NCBI GenBank assembly: GCA_014383885.1
Contig: JACNGX010000031.1
Coordinates: 1-32,683, forward strand
From: Parcubacteria group bacterium
GTDB taxonomy: Bacteria > Patescibacteriota > Minisyncoccia > Phycocordibacterales > JACNGX01
Length of the DNA stretch: 32,683 nt
Reading direction: 5' to 3'
Part shown: positions 2,492 through 32,678 of the stretch, in pieces
How positions within the stretch are numbered: position 1 is the stretch's first letter
How the letters are laid out: every line of letters begins with the position of its first letter
Program-made: the position numbers and the translations under genes
Notes under the pieces: generated by a model
Databases searched by the model: none
What the model saw: only the letters and a program-made list of their open reading frames with translations
What the model was told of the DNA's origin: nothing

Positions 2492-2803
2492 ATGGAAGAA
2501 ACACTTATTACTCAGACAAAACGTCTGAGAGCAAGTTTTTTAACTTGCATGAGGATTGCCCCTACCCCCATCAAAGGGGAAGACTATCTTGTCGATTTCA
2601 GGCGGCTATGCGACGTTCCTCTTGTCGTATGTGTCGATAAAAAATCTGTCTCCATTTCCAACGACAGTGGTATTGAAATAGGATACTACTTGCCGACTAA
2701 TGAAGACAGGGAGTTTTTTACGGGATTAAAAAATCCGGTAATCCATGAACATACGGGAAGTGATGGAAAGTCGATTTTCATCCTCGAAGAAGGGAAGAGG
2801 TAG
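2492..2803 (+). CDS. hypothetical protein (~103 aa)
   Basis: Only sizeable ORF in the gap, followed by a terminator; no recognisable motif; start uncertain (2432 or 2492). Confidence 0.55.
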   Translation: MEETLITQTKRLRASFLTCMRIAPTPIKGEDYLVDFRRLCDVPLVVCVDKKSVSISNDSGIEIGYYLPTNEDREFFTGLKNPVIHEHTGSDGKSIFILEEGKR

Positions 2804-2819
2804 GTCAGAGAGTGTGTAA

Positions 2820-2843
2820 GGGTCCCTCGGGACCCGTTTTTTT
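2820..2843 (+). terminator. rho-independent terminator
   Basis: GGGTCC CTCG GGACCC followed by T7. Confidence 0.7.
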
Positions 2844-2946
2844 ATTGAGAAAATATGCTATACTCTGAAAACACATGTGTGTATATAAAGTTAATTAATT
2901 AATAAAATATATAATTCTTTTGTGGAACACGATGTTTTACGGCTAA

Positions 2947-2998
2947 ACCGAGCACCACTTTTATTTTGAATGTATTCAAAATAAAAGTGGTGCTCGGT
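2947..2998. repeat. perfect 25-bp-arm palindrome upstream of tRNA-Ser
   Basis: accgagcaccacttttattttgaat-gt-attcaaaataaaagtggtgctcggt. Confidence 0.9.
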
Positions 2999-3031
2999 CG
3001 CCCGAACATTTTGAAGGGCAAAATGTTTTAG

Positions 3032-3118
3032 GGAGAGTTGCCAGAGCGGTCGAATGGGGCACCCTGCTAAGGTGTTAGGCGAGCAATCGCCTCGAGGGTT
3101 CGAATCCCTCACTCTCCG
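3032..3118 (+). tRNA. tRNA-Ser (GCU)
   Basis: GGAGAGT acceptor, GCACC CT GCT AA GGTGT anticodon arm, long variable arm, GAGGG TTCGAAT CCCTC T-arm, G discriminator. Confidence 0.96.
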
Positions 3119-3341
3119 CCCGTACAAAAATCAGCATCCTTTGGGATGCGATTTTTTGTTGGGCGGAGAGGAGGAAGCCGACTGCTCGGCTTCCGTGAGG
3201 GATTCGAAAAGGTTCTCCCATATTTTTGAGGAGCTTTGCTCCGAAAAAATGGGAAACCTGCACTGCTCCCGTAGGGAGAGAATCCCTCCGCACAAATAAT
3301 GAGCCGGACGGGAAACCGTCCGGCGATTATATTTGTGCAGG
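3116..3341 (+). repeat. structured direct repeat, copy 1 (226 bp)
   Basis: Near-identical to 10195-10418; built of nested hairpins. Confidence 0.93.
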
Positions 3342-3604
3342 TGTTTTCTGGACGAAGTTCGAACATTGTATGAACAAAATCCACAGGATTTTGATTAACT
3401 TCGCACGCGCGGAGCGCGTGGTGGCTTTGAACCAAATCGTACGCTCGGATTTTGTGGCAATGCTGACAATCCGCGCCTCGCGCTCCTTCCAGTCGCGAAC
3501 CAAAACCAAAAATTTCCTTACCTTTCCTTTTAAAACGGCGGGGGGGTGCAGGGGGGAGCCGCAAAAAATTGAAAGGAAATTTTATGGTTTTGTTTTCGTC
3601 GCTT
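3340..3604 (+). repeat. left 265-bp inverted repeat
   Basis: Reverse complement of 9932-10196; identical peptide strings appear in ORF-track entries 3226..3708+ and 9897..10391-. Confidence 0.95.
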
Positions 3605-3692
3605 ACAATTTGTTTGTGAAAATTCAAGATAACTGTTATCATTATATTGAAAGTGTAACACATCAGTATAATACTATCAAATTATTGAAACC

Positions 3693-3899
3693 ATGGCAAA
3701 AGAAATAGAAATCGGCAAAAATATAAAAAAGTACCGCAACAAACTGGGTTTGTCGCAAGAAGACTTTGCAAAAAAGTCTGATGTGAAATATACGACACTG
3801 ACGAAAATTGAAAGCGGAGTGATAAAAAAACCATCCGTTATGGTTATGGCACAAATTGCCAAAACACTTGGCGTTTCGATTGAGGATTTAATAAAATAA
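3693..3899 (+). CDS. XRE-family HTH regulator (probable RM controller-like protein)
   Basis: IGKNIKKYRNKLGLSQEDFAKKS...IESG...PS...IAKTLGVSIEDL; first gene of the RM operon. Confidence 0.9.
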   Translation: MAKEIEIGKNIKKYRNKLGLSQEDFAKKSDVKYTTLTKIESGVIKKPSVMVMAQIAKTLGVSIEDLIK

Positions 3900-3901
3900 T
3901 T

Positions 3902-4858
3902 ATGACTACACAACAAACAATTACAAAACTAGCAGACGATTTGAACATCAACCGAATTTACGCTCGACATGTTTTTCATATTGCGGACAAAGAACAATTG
4001 TTTGAAGATGCTTCTCGCATTGTGAGCGAAAAACCAAAGCCATTTGTAAAATGGGTTGGTGGAAAAAGACAACTCCTCAAGCAATTTCGCGAAATGGGAT
4101 TGTACCCACCCGACGATTTTAATCCTCTTACTAACACATACTTCGAGCCATTTGTCGGTGGAGGTGCTGTCTTTTTTGACCTACTCCCCAAGAAAGCTGA
4201 GCTTTCTGATCTCAATAACGAACTCACCACGACATACAATGTTATAAAAACTGATGTTGACTCACTGATTAAATCACTCAAAAAGCACAAGTACGAAAAA
4301 GAGTATTATCTTAAAATACGAGCAAAAAATCCAAAAAAATTATCAGATGTTGAAGTTGCTTCACGTTTTATTTTCCTAAACCGCACAGGATTCAACGGCA
4401 TGTATCGTGTTAATAGCAAAGGAGGTTTCAATGTACCGTTCGGGAAATATACAAATCCGATAATCTGCGATGAGGAAAACTTACGCAAAGTATCTAAAGT
4501 ATTACAAAAAGTCACAGTAAAAGAACAAGACTACAAAGCAGTCCTAAAAAAAGCAAAAAAGGGCGATTTTGTATATTTTGATCCACCATACTATCCAGTA
4601 AGCAGGACTGCTTCTTTTACTTCATACACAGCAGACTCGTTTCTAGAAAAAGAACAAACAGAGCTAAGGGACACATTTGTGGAACTTCACAAGCGAGGTT
4701 GTTTTGTAATGCTCTCAAATTCAGACACTCCTTTTATCAATGAACTCTATTCAGGTATTAAAGGTGTGAAAGTATCGAAAGTATCTGCTGGACGCTCGAT
4801 AAACTCAAACGCTGCAAAACGTGGAAAGATTAACGAAGTATTAGTAACTAATTATTGA
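3902..4858 (+). CDS. Dam/DpnM-type N6-adenine DNA methyltransferase (likely GATC)
   Basis: KWVGGK, EPFVGGGAV, NRTGFNGMYRVN..G.FNVPFG, DPPY, LSNS motifs of the D12 class. Confidence 0.95.
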   Translation: MTTQQTITKLADDLNINRIYARHVFHIADKEQLFEDASRIVSEKPKPFVKWVGGKRQLLKQFREMGLYPPDDFNPLTNTYFEPFVGGGAVFFDLLPKKAELSDLNNELTTTYNVIKTDVDSLIKSLKKHKYEKEYYLKIRAKNPKKLSDVEVASRFIFLNRTGFNGMYRVNSKGGFNVPFGKYTNPIICDEENLRKVSKVLQKVTVKEQDYKAVLKKAKKGDFVYFDPPYYPVSRTASFTSYTADSFLEKEQTELRDTFVELHKRGCFVMLSNSDTPFINELYSGIKGVKVSKVSAGRSINSNAAKRGKINEVLVTNY

Positions 4859-5724
4859 ATGATATGAATAAAACATTTACCGAATTGGCGGACAGTTTCA
4901 AAAGTTCCATAAAAACATGGGATTACTTTGTGAACTGGGATAAGGTATCAACAAATGCTGCCAATCTTGAAATTTCCCTCAACAAACTCAACTACCTGCT
5001 CGGAAAAGAGAACTTGAAAGACGAGTTTGCAAAACTTTATGAATCAAATCCCGACATTGTAAAAGCGTTGCCTGTTTTACTTGCGGTGCGCGAAAATAAA
5101 TTGGAGGTTTTTGATAAAGTGACAAAAGATTCGGAGTTTTTTGATTTCGCCAATAGTGAAGATGGTGCAGAAAAGTATTTTGAGTTTCTTGAAAAATCTG
5201 GGCTTGCTCGTTTGTTCCAAAAAGACGGTATCAAAAACCTTGTTGATTATGCAATGGGTGTTGAAGTTGGCTTGGACAGTAACGGTCGCAAAAATCGTGG
5301 TGGCACGCTTATGGAAGAAATTGTTGAATCGTGCATCAAAGACTTTTCGGAGAGGCTTGGTTTTGAGTATCTTGCACAGGCACGAGCAACTGAGATAAAA
5401 GCAAAATGGGGTTACGAAATAAAGGTTGATAAATCAGAACGAAGTTTTGATTTCGCCGTTTACAATCCTCAAACTAAAAATCTCAAATTGTTTGAAACAA
5501 ACTTCTACAATGGTGGTGGCTCAAAACTGAAAGCGGTTTGTGGCGAATTCCGCAGTTTGTATGACGAACTAACAGAGCAAGATATTGATTTTGTTTGGAT
5601 CACTGACGGACTCGGCTGGGAGACAACAAAACGACCACTTGAAGAAACTTTTAATCACAATAACGGGCAAGTATTTAACCTCAACATGCTCGAGGACGGT
5701 GTTTTGGAGGAATTAACATGGTAA
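4855..5724 (+). CDS. DpnII-family type II restriction endonuclease
   Basis: DYFVNW.K, LVDY..GVEVGLDSNGRKNRGG..ME, FDF, ETNFY.GGGSKL, FVWITDG.GW; start may be ATG 4864. Confidence 0.93.
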   Translation: MNDMNKTFTELADSFKSSIKTWDYFVNWDKVSTNAANLEISLNKLNYLLGKENLKDEFAKLYESNPDIVKALPVLLAVRENKLEVFDKVTKDSEFFDFANSEDGAEKYFEFLEKSGLARLFQKDGIKNLVDYAMGVEVGLDSNGRKNRGGTLMEEIVESCIKDFSERLGFEYLAQARATEIKAKWGYEIKVDKSERSFDFAVYNPQTKNLKLFETNFYNGGGSKLKAVCGEFRSLYDELTEQDIDFVWITDGLGWETTKRPLEETFNHNNGQVFNLNMLEDGVLEELTW

Positions 5725-5730
5725 AAAATA

Positions 5731-6480
5731 ATGACAAAGGAATTAAAACTACATCCCGATGAATTTGATCTAGAATGCACGACAGTGTGGGCTTTTCCTC
5801 GACGCGGAAATTGGGCAACGCATAAATCAGATTGGCGTGGCAACTGGTCGCCAGAAGTTGCACGCAATCTTATGCTTCGCTACTCAAAAGAGGGCGATGT
5901 TTTACTTGATCCAATGATTGGTGGCGGCACAACGGCAATCGAAGCAAAAATACTCAATCGCAATATCATTTGTTCGGATATAAACGATGTGGCACTCAAA
6001 CGCACGCGAGAGAGTCTGAAATTTGATACAGATAACAAAGCATGGCAAAAAGTTGTGAAACGCGATGCGCGTAACCTCGGCAAAGCTGAGAATGAAAGTA
6101 TTGACTTCATTCTCACGCACCCGCCCTACGCCGATATTATCAAATATAGCGAGGGAGAAATTGACGAAGATCTTTCAAATATTCACGAGCTAGACGAGTT
6201 TGCAGATGAAATGGAGAAAGTAGCAAAAGAATTGTATCGAGTCCTGAAACCTGGAAAATTTTGTGCAATTTTGATTGGCGACACGCGCCGCAAGAAAATG
6301 TATCAACCACTTGCGTATAAAGTGATGGATCGTTTTTTGAATGCGGGTTTTGAACTTAAAGAAGACATAATCAAACGACAATACAATTGCAAAGCTACAG
6401 GATTTTGGGTCAACAAATCAAAAGAGAGCAATTTCTTGCTCATTATGCACGAGCATTTGTTTGTGTTTCAAAAAATATGA
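5731..6480 (+). CDS. second SAM-dependent amino-methyltransferase (N6/N4-type), probable second RM methylase
   Basis: Motif I DPMIGGGTT precedes motif IV THPPY; RVLKPG; C-terminal HEHLFVF. Confidence 0.85.
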   Translation: MTKELKLHPDEFDLECTTVWAFPRRGNWATHKSDWRGNWSPEVARNLMLRYSKEGDVLLDPMIGGGTTAIEAKILNRNIICSDINDVALKRTRESLKFDTDNKAWQKVVKRDARNLGKAENESIDFILTHPPYADIIKYSEGEIDEDLSNIHELDEFADEMEKVAKELYRVLKPGKFCAILIGDTRRKKMYQPLAYKVMDRFLNAGFELKEDIIKRQYNCKATGFWVNKSKESNFLLIMHEHLFVFQKI

Positions 6481-8477
6481 TTACAAAAACTTCACAATTC
6501 AAAGAACTGTCAAAAAATAGGTTTATAATATTTTTTGGTTTTGTTGCGGTTTTTGTTTTATCCAATTACATTTTTACGGGAAGTTTGTTGCCGAGTACAG
6601 AAACAAAAGATCTGTGGTTCTATTCAGGGCTGTTTATGGCAATTTTTTCTATCTTGTTTATTGAGCCATACTATACATCTCCCAAAAATGTAATCACAAA
6701 CGCAATACCTCTTTTACTTGTTTTTCTGGCAATAAAAAACCTTTTTGAAAATCCTGTTTTTTGGTGGTTCGCAGCTTCTGTATTAATTACTTTGATTGTT
6801 GCTTCTGTGATATCTATGTCGACAGAAGACAAAAACAAAAGCCCTGAGCATTGGAAAAATAAACTTTCGGAGCTTCTCAAAAAGTGGGTTGTAATTATTG
6901 GACAGGGCAAGGTTTTATATTCGTCTGTTTTTGTGTACTTCTTACTTACATACTATTCGATACAAAGTTTTTATACTTTGTCACTTTTCATTTTATGGTT
7001 CTTTATAGTATCCATAAATCCCAAGAGTATTAGAAGCACCTTTGCGATTTCAAGAAAAGAACATGATAAAAATGCACTTGGGGAAATATTCGGAGTCCAA
7101 TCAAGAAAAATCTTCCTAGTCAAATTATTTGAAGACCGCAAGGATATTAAGAAGTTTGATATTGTGGAATTTCAATACTCCATGCAAGAATCAGATGATT
7201 TTCTTATGTCTGGGATTGTTTTCGATACTTATCTGCTCAATCAAGAGAAGTGGGCAAAAGTTTTGCAATTGGGCAGAATAGGAGAATCAAAAGTTAAATC
7301 GGACAAAAACATTGTATACAAAGTGTCAAATAAAGAACGAGTAACCGAACTTGAGAAAGAACTAAACACCGATAATTTTGTTGGTGTTGTTATAGAGAGG
7401 TCAAATATCGGAAAAATAAAGTTTGAATACTCAAAGAAACAGGATGATTTACAAGAGGGTGATTTAATCGAACTCAAGACAAACGGCAAGCGATTGTTTT
7501 ACCAGGTTGTGAATGGAGTTACTGAAAAAGAAAGTCTCGAACAACGAAATGAAACGGGTTTCATTAAAGGCGAAGCAATTCAGCTTGGGGAATGGAAAAA
7601 TAATGAGTTATCATTTCAAAAATACGGCTGGGTTCCCTCAATTAACACACCTATTTTCAAAGCGAACACTACCGATATTGAGGTGGCAAATTTTGAATAT
7701 CCTGAATACAAACTAGGCGTAATTCCAAACACTACTTTACCGTCTGTAATAAATCTTTCAGAAGCGGTTAGTTACCATATGGCAGTCTTAGGGGTTACAG
7801 GCTCTGGAAAATCTTTCATTACTCGTGAAGTAATTAGACAATTACAAAACGATACGAAAATTATTTGTGTTGATTTTACAGGTGAATGGAAAAAAGAATT
7901 CGATTCAGAAAGTATTGAGAATTTTGACACTATCGACAATGCAATAGCAAATGACAAAATATCTGTAATTGAGTTGAATGATGTAAGCAACACCACTCAA
8001 TCATTAGAAGAAACGAACAAAAAACTTCAAGAAATATTTGCATACGCAAAGGAAAATGAAGATTGCAAGAAAATATGTTTGGTTTTGGAAGAAGCTCACA
8101 CCATTGTTCCTGAAACAACATTTTTAGGCGACTATGGCGATTATAGTGCGAACAAGGCACTTGTTAATAAAATGAGCCAGATTGCATTGCAGGGCAGAAA
8201 ATATAATGTCGGTCTTTTGGTGCTTGCGCAAAGAACAGCAAATGTATCAAAAACTGTTTTAACACAATGCAATACAATTGTTTGCTTTCAAGCATTTGAT
8301 GAAACAGGATTCAATTTTTTAAGTAACTACATCGGAAAAGATTTAGTCCAAGCAATGCCAAATCTATCGCAATATCATGCAATTATTGTTGGCAAAGCCT
8401 CAAAATCAAATATTCCAATGATTGTCGATCTGACACGAGAACAAAAAGTTGAAAAAGACACAGAGGAAACAGATTAA
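6477..8477 (+). CDS. multi-pass membrane protein fused to a HerA/DUF87-type P-loop ATPase
   Basis: Several hydrophobic segments in the first ~180 aa; Walker A GVTGSGKS, Walker B LVLEEAH, GRKYNVG, QR motif; ATGA overlap with the methylase stop. Confidence 0.85.
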   Translation: MITKTSQFKELSKNRFIIFFGFVAVFVLSNYIFTGSLLPSTETKDLWFYSGLFMAIFSILFIEPYYTSPKNVITNAIPLLLVFLAIKNLFENPVFWWFAASVLITLIVASVISMSTEDKNKSPEHWKNKLSELLKKWVVIIGQGKVLYSSVFVYFLLTYYSIQSFYTLSLFILWFFIVSINPKSIRSTFAISRKEHDKNALGEIFGVQSRKIFLVKLFEDRKDIKKFDIVEFQYSMQESDDFLMSGIVFDTYLLNQEKWAKVLQLGRIGESKVKSDKNIVYKVSNKERVTELEKELNTDNFVGVVIERSNIGKIKFEYSKKQDDLQEGDLIELKTNGKRLFYQVVNGVTEKESLEQRNETGFIKGEAIQLGEWKNNELSFQKYGWVPSINTPIFKANTTDIEVANFEYPEYKLGVIPNTTLPSVINLSEAVSYHMAVLGVTGSGKSFITREVIRQLQNDTKIICVDFTGEWKKEFDSESIENFDTIDNAIANDKISVIELNDVSNTTQSLEETNKKLQEIFAYAKENEDCKKICLVLEEAHTIVPETTFLGDYGDYSANKALVNKMSQIALQGRKYNVGLLVLAQRTANVSKTVLTQCNTIVCFQAFDETGFNFLSNYIGKDLVQAMPNLSQYHAIIVGKASKSNIPMIVDLTREQKVEKDTEETD

Positions 8478-8595
8478 TTTTTTAAGGGAGTTCCGCTTGC
8501 GCGCGCATGGGTGGGTTGGGGCAAGCGCAACATGATTTGTTTGTGCTATCCGTTGTGTGATAGCACAACCATTTTCCTTTTCGGTACAATTACGG

Positions 8596-9705
8596 GGCTT
8601 TGTTGAATAATTCCCGCTGACAAACGGAATCCCCCGTTTGTATCCGGGATTTATGCAACAACGTAGCTTTCCGGCATACCAAGCATCGTTATCCGATTGA
8701 GTGCCTTCAATCGGAGGAGAAGCGAAGAACGCTGATTTTCGAATGTTCGTGCCGATACCGTATCCCCGAAGACGGTCTTGTATCGAAACATCGCGGTTTC
8801 CGACAGACTCCGACGATGATACCCGCTCTCCTCTTTCCATCCCGATCGTCCATGCTTCCTGATCTGCCTCAGATTCTCATCTCATATATGACGATCTCCT
8901 TTTGTATTCCCGTGTTTCCAGATCTTCGCGTTCTTCTGCGGAGGGATGGTGAAAGTCGATACGTCCCGTTCTTTGAGTGCTAAATAGCACTGCCTCGTAT
9001 CATAGGCCCCGTCTCCGGAGCACTGGTCGATGTTCGTCTCTTCGGGAATGTGATCCAAAAGTACCGGGAGTATGGTTCCGTCATGGACATCGTTTCTGGT
9101 CACGTCTCCGACGATGATGTCTCCCGTCTTCTCGTCGGCGTCGATATGTAGCTTCAGCCAACTCCGGCGTTTACTCCATCCGTGCTTGCGCACTTTCCAC
9201 TCTCCTTCTCCACACACCTTGATACCCGTCGAATCGACCACGAGATGCAGGTCTTCTCGAATCGGACGGATACGGATATCGACGTTCAGTGTCTTGCCTC
9301 GGAGGGAGAGCGTGGAGTAGTCAGGAGACTGGCATGAGGAATCGAGTCTTGCAAGGATATCCGACATCAACCCCTCGGTCGACCGGAGTGGGAGACGGAG
9401 GATTTGTCCTAAAGTAAGCGTCGTCTCAATGGCGATATCGCTGAACTTCTTCGGTCTTCCTCTCTTCTTGTCCCGTTCCTGCTCTTCCCACTGTTGTAGT
9501 GCCTCATCGGTAATATGGAAGATAAGTCTTCCTCGGTTTACCAATGCTTCATTATATTCCTTCCAGTTCCTGACCTTGTACGTTTTCTTCTTCCCATTCT
9601 TCTTTTTCCCTTCTTTTGCTTTTTTTGGCATAGCGTTTATATTGCTTTTGCCTTCATTATAGCGGAAGAAGAGAGAATTGGGAGGGGGAATTATTCAACA
9701 ATGCC
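8596..9705 (-). mobile_element. IS5-family (IS903 group) insertion sequence
   Basis: 20-bp TIRs ggctttgttgaataattccc / gggaattattcaacaatgcc (1 mismatch; resemble IS903 GGCTTTGTTGAATAA); 9-bp duplication tacaattac at 8585-8593 and 9706-9714. Confidence 0.92.
8651..9631 (-). pseudogene. IS903-type DDE transposase with an in-frame premature TGA at 8882-8884
   Basis: YKVRNWKEYNEALVNRG, PDYSTL, VDSTG, DGAYD; the frame continues after TGA as DENLRQIRKHGRSGWKEESGYHRRSLSETAMFRYK...LGMPESYVVA*. Confidence 0.88.
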
Positions 9706-9931
9706 TACAATTACCACAAAACTCTTATCGAAGCCGACGAGCGAGCCACGCGAACACCGAGCAGGCATTGGCGAAGTATGAGCCAGCCAGTGTGAGGTAT
9801 TTCTCGTGAGCAAGCGGACTGACGATTTACCACAGGCGTAGCGCCTCGGGTCGGCGCAAGCGACGGAGAAAAAGGCGACTTACTGCCACCGTCATGCTAT
9901 ATTTTATTTACAAGCCTTTTTTGGAGTAGTG

Positions 9932-10196
9932 AAGCGACGAAAACAAAACCATAAAATTTCCTTTCAATTTTTTGCGGCTCCCCCCTGCACCCCCCCGCCG
10001 TTTTAAAAGGAAAGGTAAGGAAATTTTTGGTTTTGGTTCGCGACTGGAAGGAGCGCGAGGCGCGGATTGTCAGCATTGCCACAAAATCCGAGCGTACGAT
10101 TTGGTTCAAAGCCACCACGCGCTCCGCGCGTGCGAAGTTAATCAAAATCCTGTGGATTTTGTTCATACAATGTTCGAACTTCGTCCAGAAAACACC
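9932..10196 (-). repeat. right 265-bp inverted repeat
   Basis: Reverse complement of 3340-3604. Confidence 0.95.
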
Positions 10197-10418
10197 GCCC
10201 GTACAAAAATCAGCATCTTTTGAGATGCGATTTTTGTTGAGCGGAGAGGAGGAAGCCGACTGCTCGGCTTCCGTGAGGGATTCGAAAAGGTTCTCCCATA
10301 TTTTTGAGGAGCTTTGCTCCGAAAAAATGGGAAACCTGCACTGCTCCCGTAGGGAGAGAATCCCTCCGCACAAATAATGAGCCGGGCGCATGTCGCCCGG
10401 CGATTATATTTGTGCAGG
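10195..10418 (+). repeat. structured direct repeat, copy 2 (224 bp)
   Basis: Matches 3116-3341 with a few mostly hairpin-preserving changes. Confidence 0.93.
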
Positions 10419-10436
10419 AGAGTGAGGGATTCGAAC
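10417..10436 (-). repeat. inverted copy of the tRNA-Ser 3' end (20 bp)
   Basis: ggagagtgagggattcgaac is the reverse complement of 3098-3117. Confidence 0.9.
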
Positions 10437-10631
10437 GGCGGAGCAGCGGGTCCCCGCTTGCGGGGCTGCGAGCCGCGTCCAGGAGTACTTAGCGGATTGC
10501 GAGCTTTAGCGAAGCAATACGCTTAGTAACTCCGGGACGAATCCCTCCGCAAAACAATGAGCCGGGCGCATGTCGCTTTTTGACTCTTGTTGCGCTATGG
10601 AAATTTTTTCAGTAATCTGTATCATATTCGT

Positions 10632-11375
10632 ATGAACACTCCTCCCTTATACGATCTCAATACAATAAAGTATGCCGTGGATGATGGTATGTGGAAACGT
10701 GCCATCGCTCTCTACGAAGGTGGGAAGGTTGTGGATTTCAAAGAAACGGTAAACGAGTACACAGCGCGTGTGCTCGGTGGCTCACCGTATCGGGTGAGTG
10801 TTTCGAATAAATCTGTAGATCGTGGAGACTGCGATTGTTATATGGGTCAGCAAGACGAATTATGTAAGCATATGATTGCCGTCGCTGTGTATGCAGTGTG
10901 TGATGGGCGTCCTCTCGCTTTGGAAGAAAAACAACACATTTCCGAGCCGGTGTATTCAGGCATTGTGGGTGATATAACGGAGGAGGAGATGAAAGAACTG
11001 AAATGGAACATCAACGCCGGTATGCGGTGTATAAAATCATACGAAGGTCCGTCACGGACATGGTTTGCGTATCAGAACAAACTTGATGAGGGGTGCGCAC
11101 GAATAGCAACTGCAGTTGCGACAGTACCGGCGAATGCAAAGACGGCAAAGCTTTTGGTCAACACGCTTTTGAAGCTTGATACGAAACTGGCAACAGGTGG
11201 GGTGGATGACTCCAATGGTACGGTTGGGCATTGTATGAGTGGGATTGTTGAGGTGCTTTTGTCATTTGCTGATGCCGACCCTATGTGTATAAAAGTATTT
11301 AAGGTACTTGAAGGGAAGAAGACATGTTTTGAATGGCAGGAGCCGCTTGTACGATATATGAAAAATCGCGCGTAA
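10632..11375 (+). CDS. SWIM zinc-finger domain protein
   Basis: CDC-x8-CKH motif after 'A.V.GGSPYRV'; C-terminal GGVDDSNG. Confidence 0.8.
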   Translation: MNTPPLYDLNTIKYAVDDGMWKRAIALYEGGKVVDFKETVNEYTARVLGGSPYRVSVSNKSVDRGDCDCYMGQQDELCKHMIAVAVYAVCDGRPLALEEKQHISEPVYSGIVGDITEEEMKELKWNINAGMRCIKSYEGPSRTWFAYQNKLDEGCARIATAVATVPANAKTAKLLVNTLLKLDTKLATGGVDDSNGTVGHCMSGIVEVLLSFADADPMCIKVFKVLEGKKTCFEWQEPLVRYMKNRA

Positions 11376-12935: not shown

Positions 12936-15641
12936 ATGATGCCACCAATGAACAATTTCACTACGAAGGCGAAGGAAGCAATTCGTCGTGCTCATGAGCT
13001 TGCTATTGAGCGCGGGCAAAATCATGTCTCACCACTTCACCTTATGACCGCTCTTCTTCTAGAAGAAGAGGGTGTGATTATTGCCGCCCTCGAGCGCATG
13101 GAAGTGGATATCATTTTACTTTCTGATACGTTACTTGATGTAATTGAATCGGAAGGGAATGCGAGTGTGTTGTCGCCATCGTATCAGATTTACCTCACGC
13201 CGGAACTCGCGCAGGTTTTGGAAGCGTCGGTGCGTTTCGCTCAGCATATGAAGGATGAGTTTGTGTCCACGGAACATCTCTTTCTGGCGATGCTTGACGT
13301 GGCAAGTCCCGCGCGTGAAGTGATTGCCCGATTTCGTATTGATAAAGATGAGGTGATGCGGGTGGTTGAAGAGTTGCGAGATCAGCATATTACTGATGCA
13401 ACACCACCGAAGAAAGCACGTGCGCTTATGAAATACGCACGCAATCTCACGGCGCTCGCAGCTGAGGATAAGCTTGATCCGGTTATTGGTCGCGACAATG
13501 AGATTCGGCGTATCATGGAAATTCTCTCACGTCGCACGAAGAATAATCCGATTTTGATTGGTGAGCCGGGAGTGGGAAAAACGGCGATTGCCGAAGGACT
13601 CGCGGTGCGTATTGCCAAGGGTGATGCACCGGATAGCTTGAAAGATAAAGAAATTGTCGGACTTGATCTTGGTCTTCTCATTGCCGGAACAAAATTCCGC
13701 GGTGAGTTTGAGGAGCGTTTTAAGACGGTGATGAAAGAGGTGGAGCGTTCCGAGGGGAAAATCATTCTCTTTATCGATGAGCTTCACACGATTGTGGGCG
13801 CCGGTGCGGCTGAAGGGTCGATTGACGCTTCAAACATGTTGAAGCCCGCGCTCGCGCGCGGGGAACTCCGTGTGATCGGTGCTACCACGCTCAAAGAATA
13901 TCAAAAATATGTGGAGAAAGACGCGGCGCTCGCGCGCCGCTTCCAGCCGGTGTATATTGATGAGCCCTCGCTTATTGATACCACGGCGATTTTGCGTGGC
14001 CTTAAAGAAAAATATGAGCTGTATCATGGTGTGCGTATTACCGATGATGCAATTATCTCAGCTGTGGAGCTTTCCTCTCGCTACATTACCGGACGCTTTT
14101 TGCCGGACAAGGCGGTTGATCTCATTGATGAGGCGGCATCGTCACTGCGTATTTCACTCGAAAGTATGCCTCCTGAGCTTGAAGAAACACACCGCGCGGT
14201 GATGCGTTTGGAAGTGGAAAAAGAGGCGCTCAAGAAAGACACCGGCTCGGGTATTGATGCGACTGTGGTGAAGAAAGCGAAAATGCGCTTGCGTGCGATT
14301 GAAAAAGACATTGCCGATTTGAAAGAAAAAACGCGCGAGGTGGAGCTTAAATGGAAAAATGAAAAAGAACTTTTGAATGATATTCGCACGCTTAAAAAAA
14401 ATCTCGAGAGCTTGCGCTTGGAAGCCGAGAAGGCGGAACTTCATTCCGATTTGGGAACTGCCGCTGAAATCCTCTACGGTAAGATTCCGGTACTTGAAGG
14501 TGAACTTGCGACTAAGACAAAACGCTTGAAGGGTTTGCAGAAGCGCCGTCGTATTCTCAAAGAAGAAATCACCGAAGAAGAGATTGCTTCCGTGGTGGCG
14601 CGTTGGACTGGTGTGCCTGTCTCGCGCATGCTTGAAGAAGAGACGAAAAAACTCTCTCGCATGGAAGAGGAATTGCAGAAGCGCGTGATTGGTCAGGAGA
14701 TCGCGGTCAAAAAAGTGGCTGATGCGGTGAAGCGTTCGCGTGTGGGGGTAGGAGATCCGAATCGTCCGATTGGTTCATTCATGTTTCTCGGGCCGACAGG
14801 TGTTGGGAAAACCGAGCTCACCAAAGCACTTGCATCGTTTATGTTTGATGATGAGAAAGCGCTGGTGCGGGTTGATATGTCGGAATACATGGAGCGACAT
14901 TCCACCGCAAAGCTTCTTGGCGCGCCTCCTGGATATGTGGGGCATGAGGAGGCAGGGCAACTCACAGAAGCGATTCGACATCGTCCGTATTCGGTTGTGC
15001 TTTTTGATGAAATCGAGAAGGCACATCCGGAAGTGTTTAATGTGTTGTTACAAGTGTTGGATGAAGGGCAACTCACTGATTCCAAGGGAAGAAAAATCAA
15101 TTTCAAGAATACGATTGTGATCCTCACATCCAATATTGGCTCCGAGCATATCGATCGCATGCAGACGATTGGCTTTTCCAACGGTGATGAGAAGGAGGAA
15201 TACGACGACGCGAAAGACAAGGTGATGAACAGCTTGCGTGATCATTTTCGTCCGGAATTTTTGAATCGTCTCGATGATATTGTGCTTTTCAACATTCTTT
15301 CCAAGGAAACGGTGCGTGGTATTGTGGACGTGCAGATTGCTATTGCCGAGAAGCGACTCGCGGAAAAAGATATTGTGCTTTCGGTAACACCTCTTGCGCG
15401 GGAGCTTTTGGCGAAGAAGGGATATAATCCGCAATACGGAGCACGACCACTGAAACGTTTGATTCAGACCGACATCCTGACGCCGATTGCAAATGCTATG
15501 ATTGATGAGGGAATTATGAATGGCGGAAAAGTGACGGTGGATGTGAAAGGCGATGAATTGGTGGTGGCTGCTGAGGCGAAGAAGAAGACACGGAAAGCGG
15601 TGAAAAAACCGGAGGTAAAGAAAACAGCGAAGGTGGGATAA
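12936..15641 (+). CDS. clpB: ATP-dependent chaperone ClpB
   Basis: Clp N-domain, NBD1 GEPGVGKT / FIDELH, long coiled-coil M-domain, NBD2 [22 protein letters not shown]. Confidence 0.93.
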
Positions 15642-32578: not shown

Positions 32579-32678
32579 CCACTCCCCACCTTTAAATACG
32601 AAGACATGTGGTACACTTGTCACATATGCCACTCCTCACCTTTAAATACGAAGACATGTGGTACACTTGTCACATATG
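32579..32678 (+). repeat. 50-bp tandem duplication (2 copies, 1 mismatch)
   Basis: ccactccYcacctttaaatacgaagacatgtggtacacttgtcacatatg x2. Confidence 0.9.

Follow-up and report, generated by a model that had tools for sequence, protein, structure and literature searches.

What kind of element has placed a restriction-modification (RM) operon behind a serine tRNA gene in a Parcubacteria group bacterium, when no recombinase accompanies it? The operon lies on contig C11 (JACNGX010000031.1) of the 648-kb, 61-contig assembly GCA_014383885.1, and this contig, at its full length of 32,683 nucleotides, is called the window here. Two long inverted arms (E) enclose the operon, two copies of a direct repeat (D and D') enclose the arms, and the whole is framed by the 3'-terminal 20 nucleotides of tRNA-Ser(GCT) (T) and an inverted copy of them (rcT, with rc for reverse complement). 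We consider that the region is probably derived from a family of mobile elements that integrate at tRNA genes by means of a large serine recombinase (LSR). The copy in the window would represent the cargo module of such an element, gained and lost through a duplicated tRNA trailer.

Repeat analysis of the window gives the full order T-D-rcE-cargo-E-D'-rcT. Coordinates and a shuffle test place every repeat where a first-pass annotation of this sequence had put it. The features framing the cargo are as follows.

3032-3120, + strand: tRNA-Ser(GCT) (ARAGORN; Rfam tRNA, 53 bits)
3098-3117, + strand: T, the 20-mer from the tRNA T-loop to the 3' end, a putative attB-type left half-site
3116-3120, + strand: core CCGCC, comprising the last two acceptor-stem nucleotides, the discriminator base and CC
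3116-3341, + strand: D, direct repeat with its second copy at 10195-10418
3134-3149, ∼3163-3291 and 3303-3324, + strand: contents of D, namely the stem of hairpin 1 (hp1, terminator-like), unit B and the stem of hairpin 2 (hp2)
3340-3604, - strand: tRNA-proximal E arm, 265 nt, 100% complementary to 9932-10196
9932-10196, + strand: tRNA-distal E arm, which with the core and D' forms a putative attR-type junction
10195-10418, + strand: D', the native trailer again, with hp1', unit B' and hp2'
10417-10576, + strand: unit A, the native structured unit that follows, beginning with rcT (20 nt) and ending in GAATCCCTCCGC and a half hairpin

The inverted copy of T at 10417-10436 has no mismatches, and none of 100 shuffled sequences gave a match. 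The core recurs at 10195-10199, and an inverted, imperfect form of it, GCAGG, is present at 3337-3341 and 10414-10418. D and D' differ at 11 of 226 columns. Every difference falls in one of two hairpins (3139-3162 and 3308-3319), and the 145 nt separating these are identical. The G+C content is 32-43% in the cargo and 45-54% outside it, which, judging from composition, may mark the cargo as foreign.

Relatives retrieved with the ClpB gene are labelled Patescibacteria, Parcubacteria or Paceibacterota. Sequences resembling E occur in 20 of 61 relatives. Most form inverted pairs ∼2-6.5 kb apart, and pairs in other genomes enclose different cargo and adjoin different tRNAs, in agreement with the first-pass view of the region as a cassette. 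Arms are 96-100% identical to each other within most genomes and 70-85% identical between genomes; three decayed-looking pairs have arms that are 91-93% identical. In well-assembled relatives a second inverted pair, termed Y (83-147 nt), lies between the tRNA and the proximal E arm and encloses ∼1.4 kb that encodes an LSR with Resolvase, Recombinase and Zn_ribbon_recom domains. The canonical order, read from 20 fully resolved loci, is tRNA, core, (Y, LSR, rcY), core', (rcE, cargo, E), core, native trailer, with parentheses marking the two modules. An LSR gene is present between the tRNA and the proximal arm at 14 of 20 E pairs, 3 of these 14 being cut by contig ends. Two further pairs, at which the contig stops with the arm, give no information on this point, and four have no LSR: the window, another contig of the same assembly (C27), and genomes G003 and G021.

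The same association is found when loci are chosen by LSR homology alone. In a further sample of 14 such loci, two of which are cut by contig ends, Y-type arms abut the tRNA in 13, and a second, abutting inverted pair of 92-429 nt is present in 10. An LSR module alone at a tRNA was not encountered in this sample, as all four loci that lack a clear second pair carry an E-type half-site after rcY. One further locus, L168, has a truncated LSR and no arms. Of 26 loci, 24 have the LSR gene convergent with the tRNA, and two, L169 and C49 of the window's own genome, have it co-directional. Members of the LSR family are matched in 166 of 301 genomes of the order (E ≤ 1e-40). These include 39 of the 48 genomes that carry ext, a noncoding block described below, compared with 127 of the 253 others, in tables that were combined and count related genomes that are not independent. 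In the window's own genome an LSR gene with a Y-type start lies behind tRNA-Ser(TGA) on C49, an E-type end with core CCGCC is found at the end of contig C21, and a single tyrosine recombinase is encoded, on contig C60. The first-pass annotation had described the cassette as recombinase-less and had proposed a search for recombinases linked to E elsewhere. That search uncovered the LSR family, so the description holds in cis for this copy and fails for the system as a whole.

Two further observations concern the LSR module. LSR residues 461-500 are encoded inside the Y arm (L142, 2602-2722 and 4123-4243; also L020, L141 and L041), and consequently the same coding stretch is present in inverted form upstream of the gene. 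At L167 (8823-9100, genome G110) the LSR module is followed by an E arm and its inverted partner within ∼300 nt, which may be a nearly empty cargo module.

The junctions of these elements have features of serine integrase attachment sites. At all 20 resolved loci a core of 3-10 nt (CCGCC, CACCA and CAGCCAA are examples), identical to the last bases of the local tRNA, is present between tRNA and Y, in inverted form between E and Y, and between E and the trailer. The outer ∼30-35 nt of E resemble the 3' half of a tRNA. The distance from the TTCGA motif to the core is 16-18 nt in the tRNA (20 relatives, measured by script; 17 nt in the window, by eye), and that from the T-loop motif to the core is 22-23 nt in E (12 loci by script and nine by eye, including the window, where TTCG lies 22 nt from the core). 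For left half-sites, to which this comparison applies, the motif is 4-6 bp further from the core in E than in the tRNA at 21 of 21 loci. In serine integrase sites the zinc-ribbon motif of attP stands 5 bp further from the centre than that of attB, as reported by Rutherford et al. (2013; PMC3783163). By analogy, we infer that the shift between E and tRNA corresponds to the geometry of attP and attB. T, core and trailer together would then constitute attB; E, core and Y would be attP; T, core and Y would be attL; and E, core and trailer would be attR. The junction between the two modules would be a spare attP in inverted orientation. Crossover would occur on the terminal bases of the tRNA or immediately beyond them, which would leave the tRNA whole.

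The repeats that lie outside E have counterparts at loci without a cassette. Many tRNA genes of the window's genome are followed by a hairpin and then by a ∼170-nt unit with a middle part that is conserved between loci. At its 5' end the unit repeats the 3' end of the local tRNA in reverse complement, in most cases with a small hairpin interposed, and at its 3' end it repeats that tRNA end directly. Unit B in D conforms to this pattern, beginning with the antisense of the tRNA 3' end, broken by a small hairpin, and ending in GAATCCCTCCGC; the half hairpin that trails unit A (10552-10576) is matched by the apex of hp2'. Copies of the unit A family lie behind tRNA-Gly, -Arg, -Pro, -Phe and -Ser of this genome, and D-type trailers lie behind other tRNAs both here and in G002, which belongs to the same genus. 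By a rough count, 11 of 38 tRNAs have an exact antisense 8-mer no more than 450 nt downstream (by our estimate ∼0.3 would be expected), and 7 of 38 have a direct 12-mer copy downstream. In G002, tRNA-Ser(GCT) is followed by a hairpin, an exact rcT 20-mer, a unit and unrelated genes. Neither E nor a cassette is present at this tRNA, and no LSR match was obtained anywhere in G002. Since such units follow many tRNAs, and since rcT is present at the cassette-free locus of G002, T, D and rcT can be regarded as native features. On these comparisons D is the tRNA's own trailer and rcT is the 5' end of the next unit, and neither is an end of the cassette, contrary to the first-pass assignment of D to the element and of rcT to its terminus. 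Units of this type also multiply attB-like ends beside tRNAs.

Rfam searches of the whole window (at gathering thresholds) and of 2800-10800 together with four relatives' loci (at E-value thresholds) returned no family for D, E, the units or ext. In the literature and Rfam, no description of structured units trailing tRNAs was found. Units were located at 3163-3291 and 10417-10551 of the window and at C47:9911-10130 and 13141-13360, C51:2900-3354, C27:181-400, C30:2039-2250 and C2:31060-31290, with three tRNA-trailing units in tandem on C51. At C2:31000-31070 a tRNA- or tmRNA-like 3' end (T-arm and acceptor strand to CCA) precedes a hairpin and a unit, and ARAGORN calls no gene on this contig despite that 3' end. 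Behind tRNA-Ser(GCT) of G002, a 4-kb insert (L059, 3440-7150) directly follows the unit's direct copy of the tRNA end. It has open reading frames of 127 and 1,106 amino acids and neither E nor a recombinase, which suggests that unit ends also serve as insertion points. In G001, another genome of the genus, tRNA-Ser(GCT) and a decayed cassette (L060, C3:97000-116500) are inverted with respect to RecG, relative to the arrangement in the window and G002.

We examined gain and loss of the window copy in four metagenome runs, represented by k-mer contigs of low sensitivity. A contig of run X12 (426 nt, depth 5.65, 0 mismatches) joins 3037-3162 to 10241-10540. It comprises the tRNA, one D and unit A, skips 7,078 bp, and combines a left-type hp1 with a right-type hp2. 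A single crossover within the identical 145 nt thus links the occupied and empty forms. Contigs of the cargo are present in the same run. The cassette is therefore present or absent in natural populations by way of one reciprocal crossover in the 145-nt identical part of D, and the empty site T-D-rcT that the first-pass annotation had predicted does exist. The same derived layout (D, rcE, cargo, E, D') is found at tRNA-Glu of G003, where the D copies are 100% identical over 134 and 62 nt and the locus has no LSR. Its occurrence at another tRNA points to a repeatable pathway.

The junctions of the window copy are T.D, E.rc(D end), E.D' and T.rc(D' end), with no Y half-site. Two of these are attB-like and two attR-like, and a serine integrase would consequently not be expected to act on the copy as it stands. 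A canonical element consists of a Y-closed LSR module and an E-closed cargo module, with ext by the distal arm, between tRNA and trailer. The window copy would have kept the cargo module (a controller protein, a DpnII-type RM system and a HerA-family ATPase), which was hit later by an insertion sequence (IS). The Y/LSR module would be the missing part, with the native trailer D flanking the cargo module on both sides instead. The cassette might first have been built and spread by the LSR, and might then have arrived here as a circle of E-D-rcE plus cargo that recombined with an empty T-D-rcT through homology in D, in a Campbell-type event driven by host homologous recombination. The LSR of C49 could act only on an intact attB at this tRNA and not on the present ends of the cassette. 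The route to a D-bearing circle without an LSR is conjecture.

In run X10, a contig carries an E outer end and core like those of the window (window 10199) joined to a different flank, which by eye resembles the Y arm of G073 (L161). An LSR-linked version of a nearly identical E may exist in the X10 community.

The cargo and the sequences adjoining it have the following features.

3693-3899, + strand: controller (C) protein with XRE-type helix-turn-helix (HTH) (Pfam HTH_3 1.2e-17; PADLOC Control_protein 7.6e-11)
3902-4858, + strand: Dam-class (D12) N6-adenine DNA methyltransferase (Pfam MethyltransfD12 6.6e-62; PADLOC MTase_II 1.9e-99)
4855-5724, + strand: DpnII-family type II restriction endonuclease (Pfam DpnII 4.6e-92; PADLOC REase_II 1.4e-94)
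5731-6480, + strand: second DNA methyltransferase, N6_N4 class (Pfam N6_N4_Mtase 2.5e-25; PADLOC MTase_II 1.4e-91)
6387-8477, + strand: HerA/DUF87-family ATPase, start codon uncertain (Pfam DUF87 2.7e-14; PADLOC HerA 6.4e-31)
8494-8595, - strand: ext, cargo-side part, model positions 201-273 (nhmmer, 3-sequence seed)
8596-9705, - strand: IS with a DDE transposase (8882-9631) and 28-nt imperfect terminal inverted repeats (8596-8623 and 9678-9705)
9706-9931, - strand: ext, E-side part, model positions 19-201 (nhmmer; no Rfam match)

The second methyltransferase is 82% identical to its homologue in G048. The HTH gene was considered as a backbone gene of the element and rejected, as it shows only ∼30% identity between cassettes and fits RM controller proteins. 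Pfam and PADLOC searches detected no recombinase in the cargo besides the IS transposase, as the first-pass annotation had stated, and no gene in 3032-10600 combines Resolvase, Recombinase and zinc-ribbon domains. The IS is present in a single copy in the assembly, has a 9-bp target duplication (8587-8595 and 9706-9714) and occupies the identical place in contigs of runs X6 and X9. It interrupts ext at model position 201 and, because it splits this conserved block, is confirmed as a later insertion with its own terminal repeats and duplication. Other E pairs carry DpnII-type and other RM systems, OLD-like and AAA_13 ATPases, GmrSD, and a LexA-methylase fusion. The pair in G017 encloses a copper-type P-type ATPase, so delivery of defence genes, the function first proposed for the cassette, is not a constant property of the family. 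Just outside the cassette, a SWIM zinc-finger protein (window 10587-11375) matches the PADLOC candidate defence family PDC-S62 (1.3e-13).

The ext block is a conserved noncoding stretch of ∼180-330 nt between the cargo and one E arm, with homologues in 48 of the 301 genomes of the order. Alignment and folding reveal a pair of hairpins that show compensatory changes and an invariant U.G pair. A third remains paired although its sequence and length vary, and is followed by a conserved GCTCCCTTA. In the proximal E arm of the window there is an inner hairpin with a 22-bp stem (3498-3519 and 3573-3594), for which compensatory stem changes are present in L022, L024 and L026. In G055 (L023, 2700-2800) the G-rich loop of this hairpin, ∼50 nt long, is in the opposite orientation. 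The cassette on C27 is decayed, with arms that are 92% identical and no outer half-site. A promoter scan around E returned weak, non-conserved matches only, and promoter-like motifs noted by eye in ext are given no weight here. A protein-coding role for E or ext was rejected on account of indels that are not multiples of three and of stems with compensatory changes. E was likewise rejected as a miniature inverted-repeat transposable element or IS pair: no target duplication was found, and a genome gave eight matches at most, including some self-complementary double hits.

Several points weigh against an origin by LSR action. With neither an LSR nor a Y half-site at the locus, nothing ties this particular copy to such action. 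Host homologous recombination suffices for the switch between occupied and empty forms and explains all direct observations. The LSR gene on C49 is cut by the contig end, its N-terminal 193 residues being assembled. An excised E-D-rcE circle, which the first-pass annotation also predicted, has no junction among the joints listed in the four low-sensitivity runs. If such circles were to arise by recombination of the mirror attP with a mirror attB, LSR-only loci would be predicted, and none of four candidates proved to be one. Only a part of the distal flanks shows a clear mirror attB, which would consist of a hairpin and then rcT. Moreover, the proposed att assignments rest on analogy with an A118-type integrase, and no motif could be defined for the right half-site. 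Finally, this origin assigns no function to the long identical arms, the internal inverted attP or ext.

The family might also function as a two-part platform, in which an LSR module docks at the tRNA and E-bounded cargo is exchanged as LSR-less circles in the manner of integrons or SCC (staphylococcal cassette chromosome) elements. In such a scheme ext and the internal attP would set direction or expression, and the window and G003 copies would have been caught afterwards. We regard this arrangement as possible and rather doubtful.

Somewhat less likely is that an RM unit was inserted by recombination or repair with duplication of a 226-bp target, that the E arms are relics, and that a site-specific recombinase never took part. 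The RM genes do lie between long direct repeats (the 226-nt D and D') that are single-copy in the empty site, and there is no recombinase in cis. Furthermore, RM genes with long target duplications, in Helicobacter and others, and RM units with long inverted repeats and no transposase are on record (Furuta et al., 2010; PMC2853133). However, E is conserved across the order, combines a tRNA-like half-site with the terminal bases of the local tRNA at 21 of 21 loci, and usually adjoins an LSR. The insert shares its att-like E ends and ext with the LSR elements and contains an IS, so that other features of mobile elements are present, and the duplicated-trailer layout has arisen at a different tRNA in G003. 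These observations favor descent from the LSR family over simple insertion of an RM unit.

Cassette exchange that uses the inverted tRNA ends T and rcT as sites, independently of any recombinase or with an unknown one, is a good deal more improbable. The exact, non-random pairing of T with rcT, the T-D-rcT structure of the empty site and the variable cargo between E pairs would all suit such a mechanism. Nonetheless, rcT follows the same tRNA in the cassette-free G002, antisense copies accompany 11 of 38 tRNAs, the deletion joint lies inside D rather than at T or rcT, and in relatives E is associated with a recombinase family of its own. The G002 locus by itself largely refutes T and rcT as sites.

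We attach slightly less weight again to the idea that the E arms form a phase-variable switch, flipping the RM operon relative to promoters outside it. Perfect inverted repeats of 265 bp should recombine, identity between arms is 96-100% inside most genomes and falls to 70-85% from one genome to another, and the LSR module occurs in both orientations (24 convergent and 2 co-directional of 26). However, ext is beside the tRNA-distal arm in 15 of 15 loci at which ext and tRNA could both be placed, and phase variation would have no obvious use for a metal pump. Inversion of the cargo between the arms, as the first-pass annotation envisaged, left no joint among those listed in the four runs. Of the listed joints, those from 3451 to 9953 and from 3583 to 10085, each with sides of 30 nt, were judged to be cross-placement of related E copies or k-mer artefacts.

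Repeat-induced misassembly of this metagenome-assembled genome is the least probable explanation of all: although the assembly is in 61 contigs, most of which end in repeats of ∼55 nt, and D and E are both longer than these, the same architecture recurs in the one-contig genomes G048 and G110 and on long contigs elsewhere, and contigs of independent runs span three of the four junctions (tRNA/D, E/D', which is crossed by a contig of run X6, and D'/unit A). With regard to the contig ends themselves, a 50-nt unit occurs twice in tandem at the right end of the window (32579-32678) and recurs, 98-100% identical across 45-63 nt, at dozens of contig ends, and a second repeat family, of ∼55 nt, is found at many others. 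These high-copy repeats break up the assembly.

Derivation from a family of tRNA-integrating LSR elements thus remains the reading that we favor. In Patescibacteria, whose genomes are far smaller than 1 Mb, few mobile elements have been described. With its cargo of RM systems, further defence genes and a metal pump, the family may be one of the main routes by which genes move among them. Serine integrases are in use for inserting DNA at defined sites, and the host site of this clade is the universally conserved tRNA end from T-loop to CCA. Variants for at least a dozen tRNAs would provide a ready set of site and enzyme pairs to try. The mirrored arms, the internal inverted attP and ext are features for which current models of serine-integrase elements do not account. 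In the literature searched, we found no tRNA-targeting serine recombinase element with mirrored long arms in Patescibacteria. The family, widespread in its order, is thus apparently undescribed.

How does it compare with known systems? In DNA transposons the bases outside the ends would be directly repeated. Here the bases outside E are inverted (GCAGG...CCGCC in the window, GGCGG...CCGCC in G017), and no transposase is associated with E. Unlike a tRNA island formed by a tyrosine integrase, the region has the tRNA end in inverted orientation at its far end, and the only tyrosine recombinase of the genome is that on C60. Tycheposons of Prochlorococcus (Hackl et al., bioRxiv 10.1101/2020.12.28.424599) likewise occupy tRNA genes in a site-specific manner, in streamlined marine bacteria, and carry modular cargo. 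In the available portion of that report, 910 of 937 use tyrosine recombinases, a minority without one carry an LSR, many have replication modules, and partial tRNA direct repeats mark the ends. Mirrored inverted arms are not mentioned in that portion, and the tyrosine recombinase and replication module it describes are present neither in the window nor in the annotated cassettes of relatives. The RM rearrangements of Furuta et al. (PMC2853133) cited above resemble the window in having a type II RM system without transposase or integrase, a long target duplication and inverted repeats. In contrast to those, the window belongs to a conserved family with a linked LSR in relatives, and its target is a structured tRNA trailer.

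Two groups of LSR elements are closer to the family described here. In the SCC and pseudo-SCC elements of staphylococci and enterococci, Ccr LSRs move cargo cassettes into the 3' end of a conserved gene, and recombinase-less derivatives at the same site rely on a recombinase in trans. The present family differs in target and taxon, in having long mirrored inverted arms and no direct-repeat integration-site sequences, and in that the window copy lacks a pair of sites that a serine integrase would be expected to recombine. Serine-integrase elements and prophages (A118, Bxb1, phiC31) encode recombinases with the same three-domain build as the LSR of this family. The window has no LSR in cis, and it has the short shared core and the attP/attB motif offset; in serine-integrase elements, too, junctions share only a short core, with the motif ∼5 bp further out in the element site (PMC3783163). 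Unlike those elements, the family uses a tRNA 3' end as host site, with the T-loop as the putative recognised motif. It has no phage genes, and it keeps an inverted internal attP, a structured noncoding block beside one arm, and two modules that are each closed by inverted arms of 83-429 nt, usually 96-100% identical.

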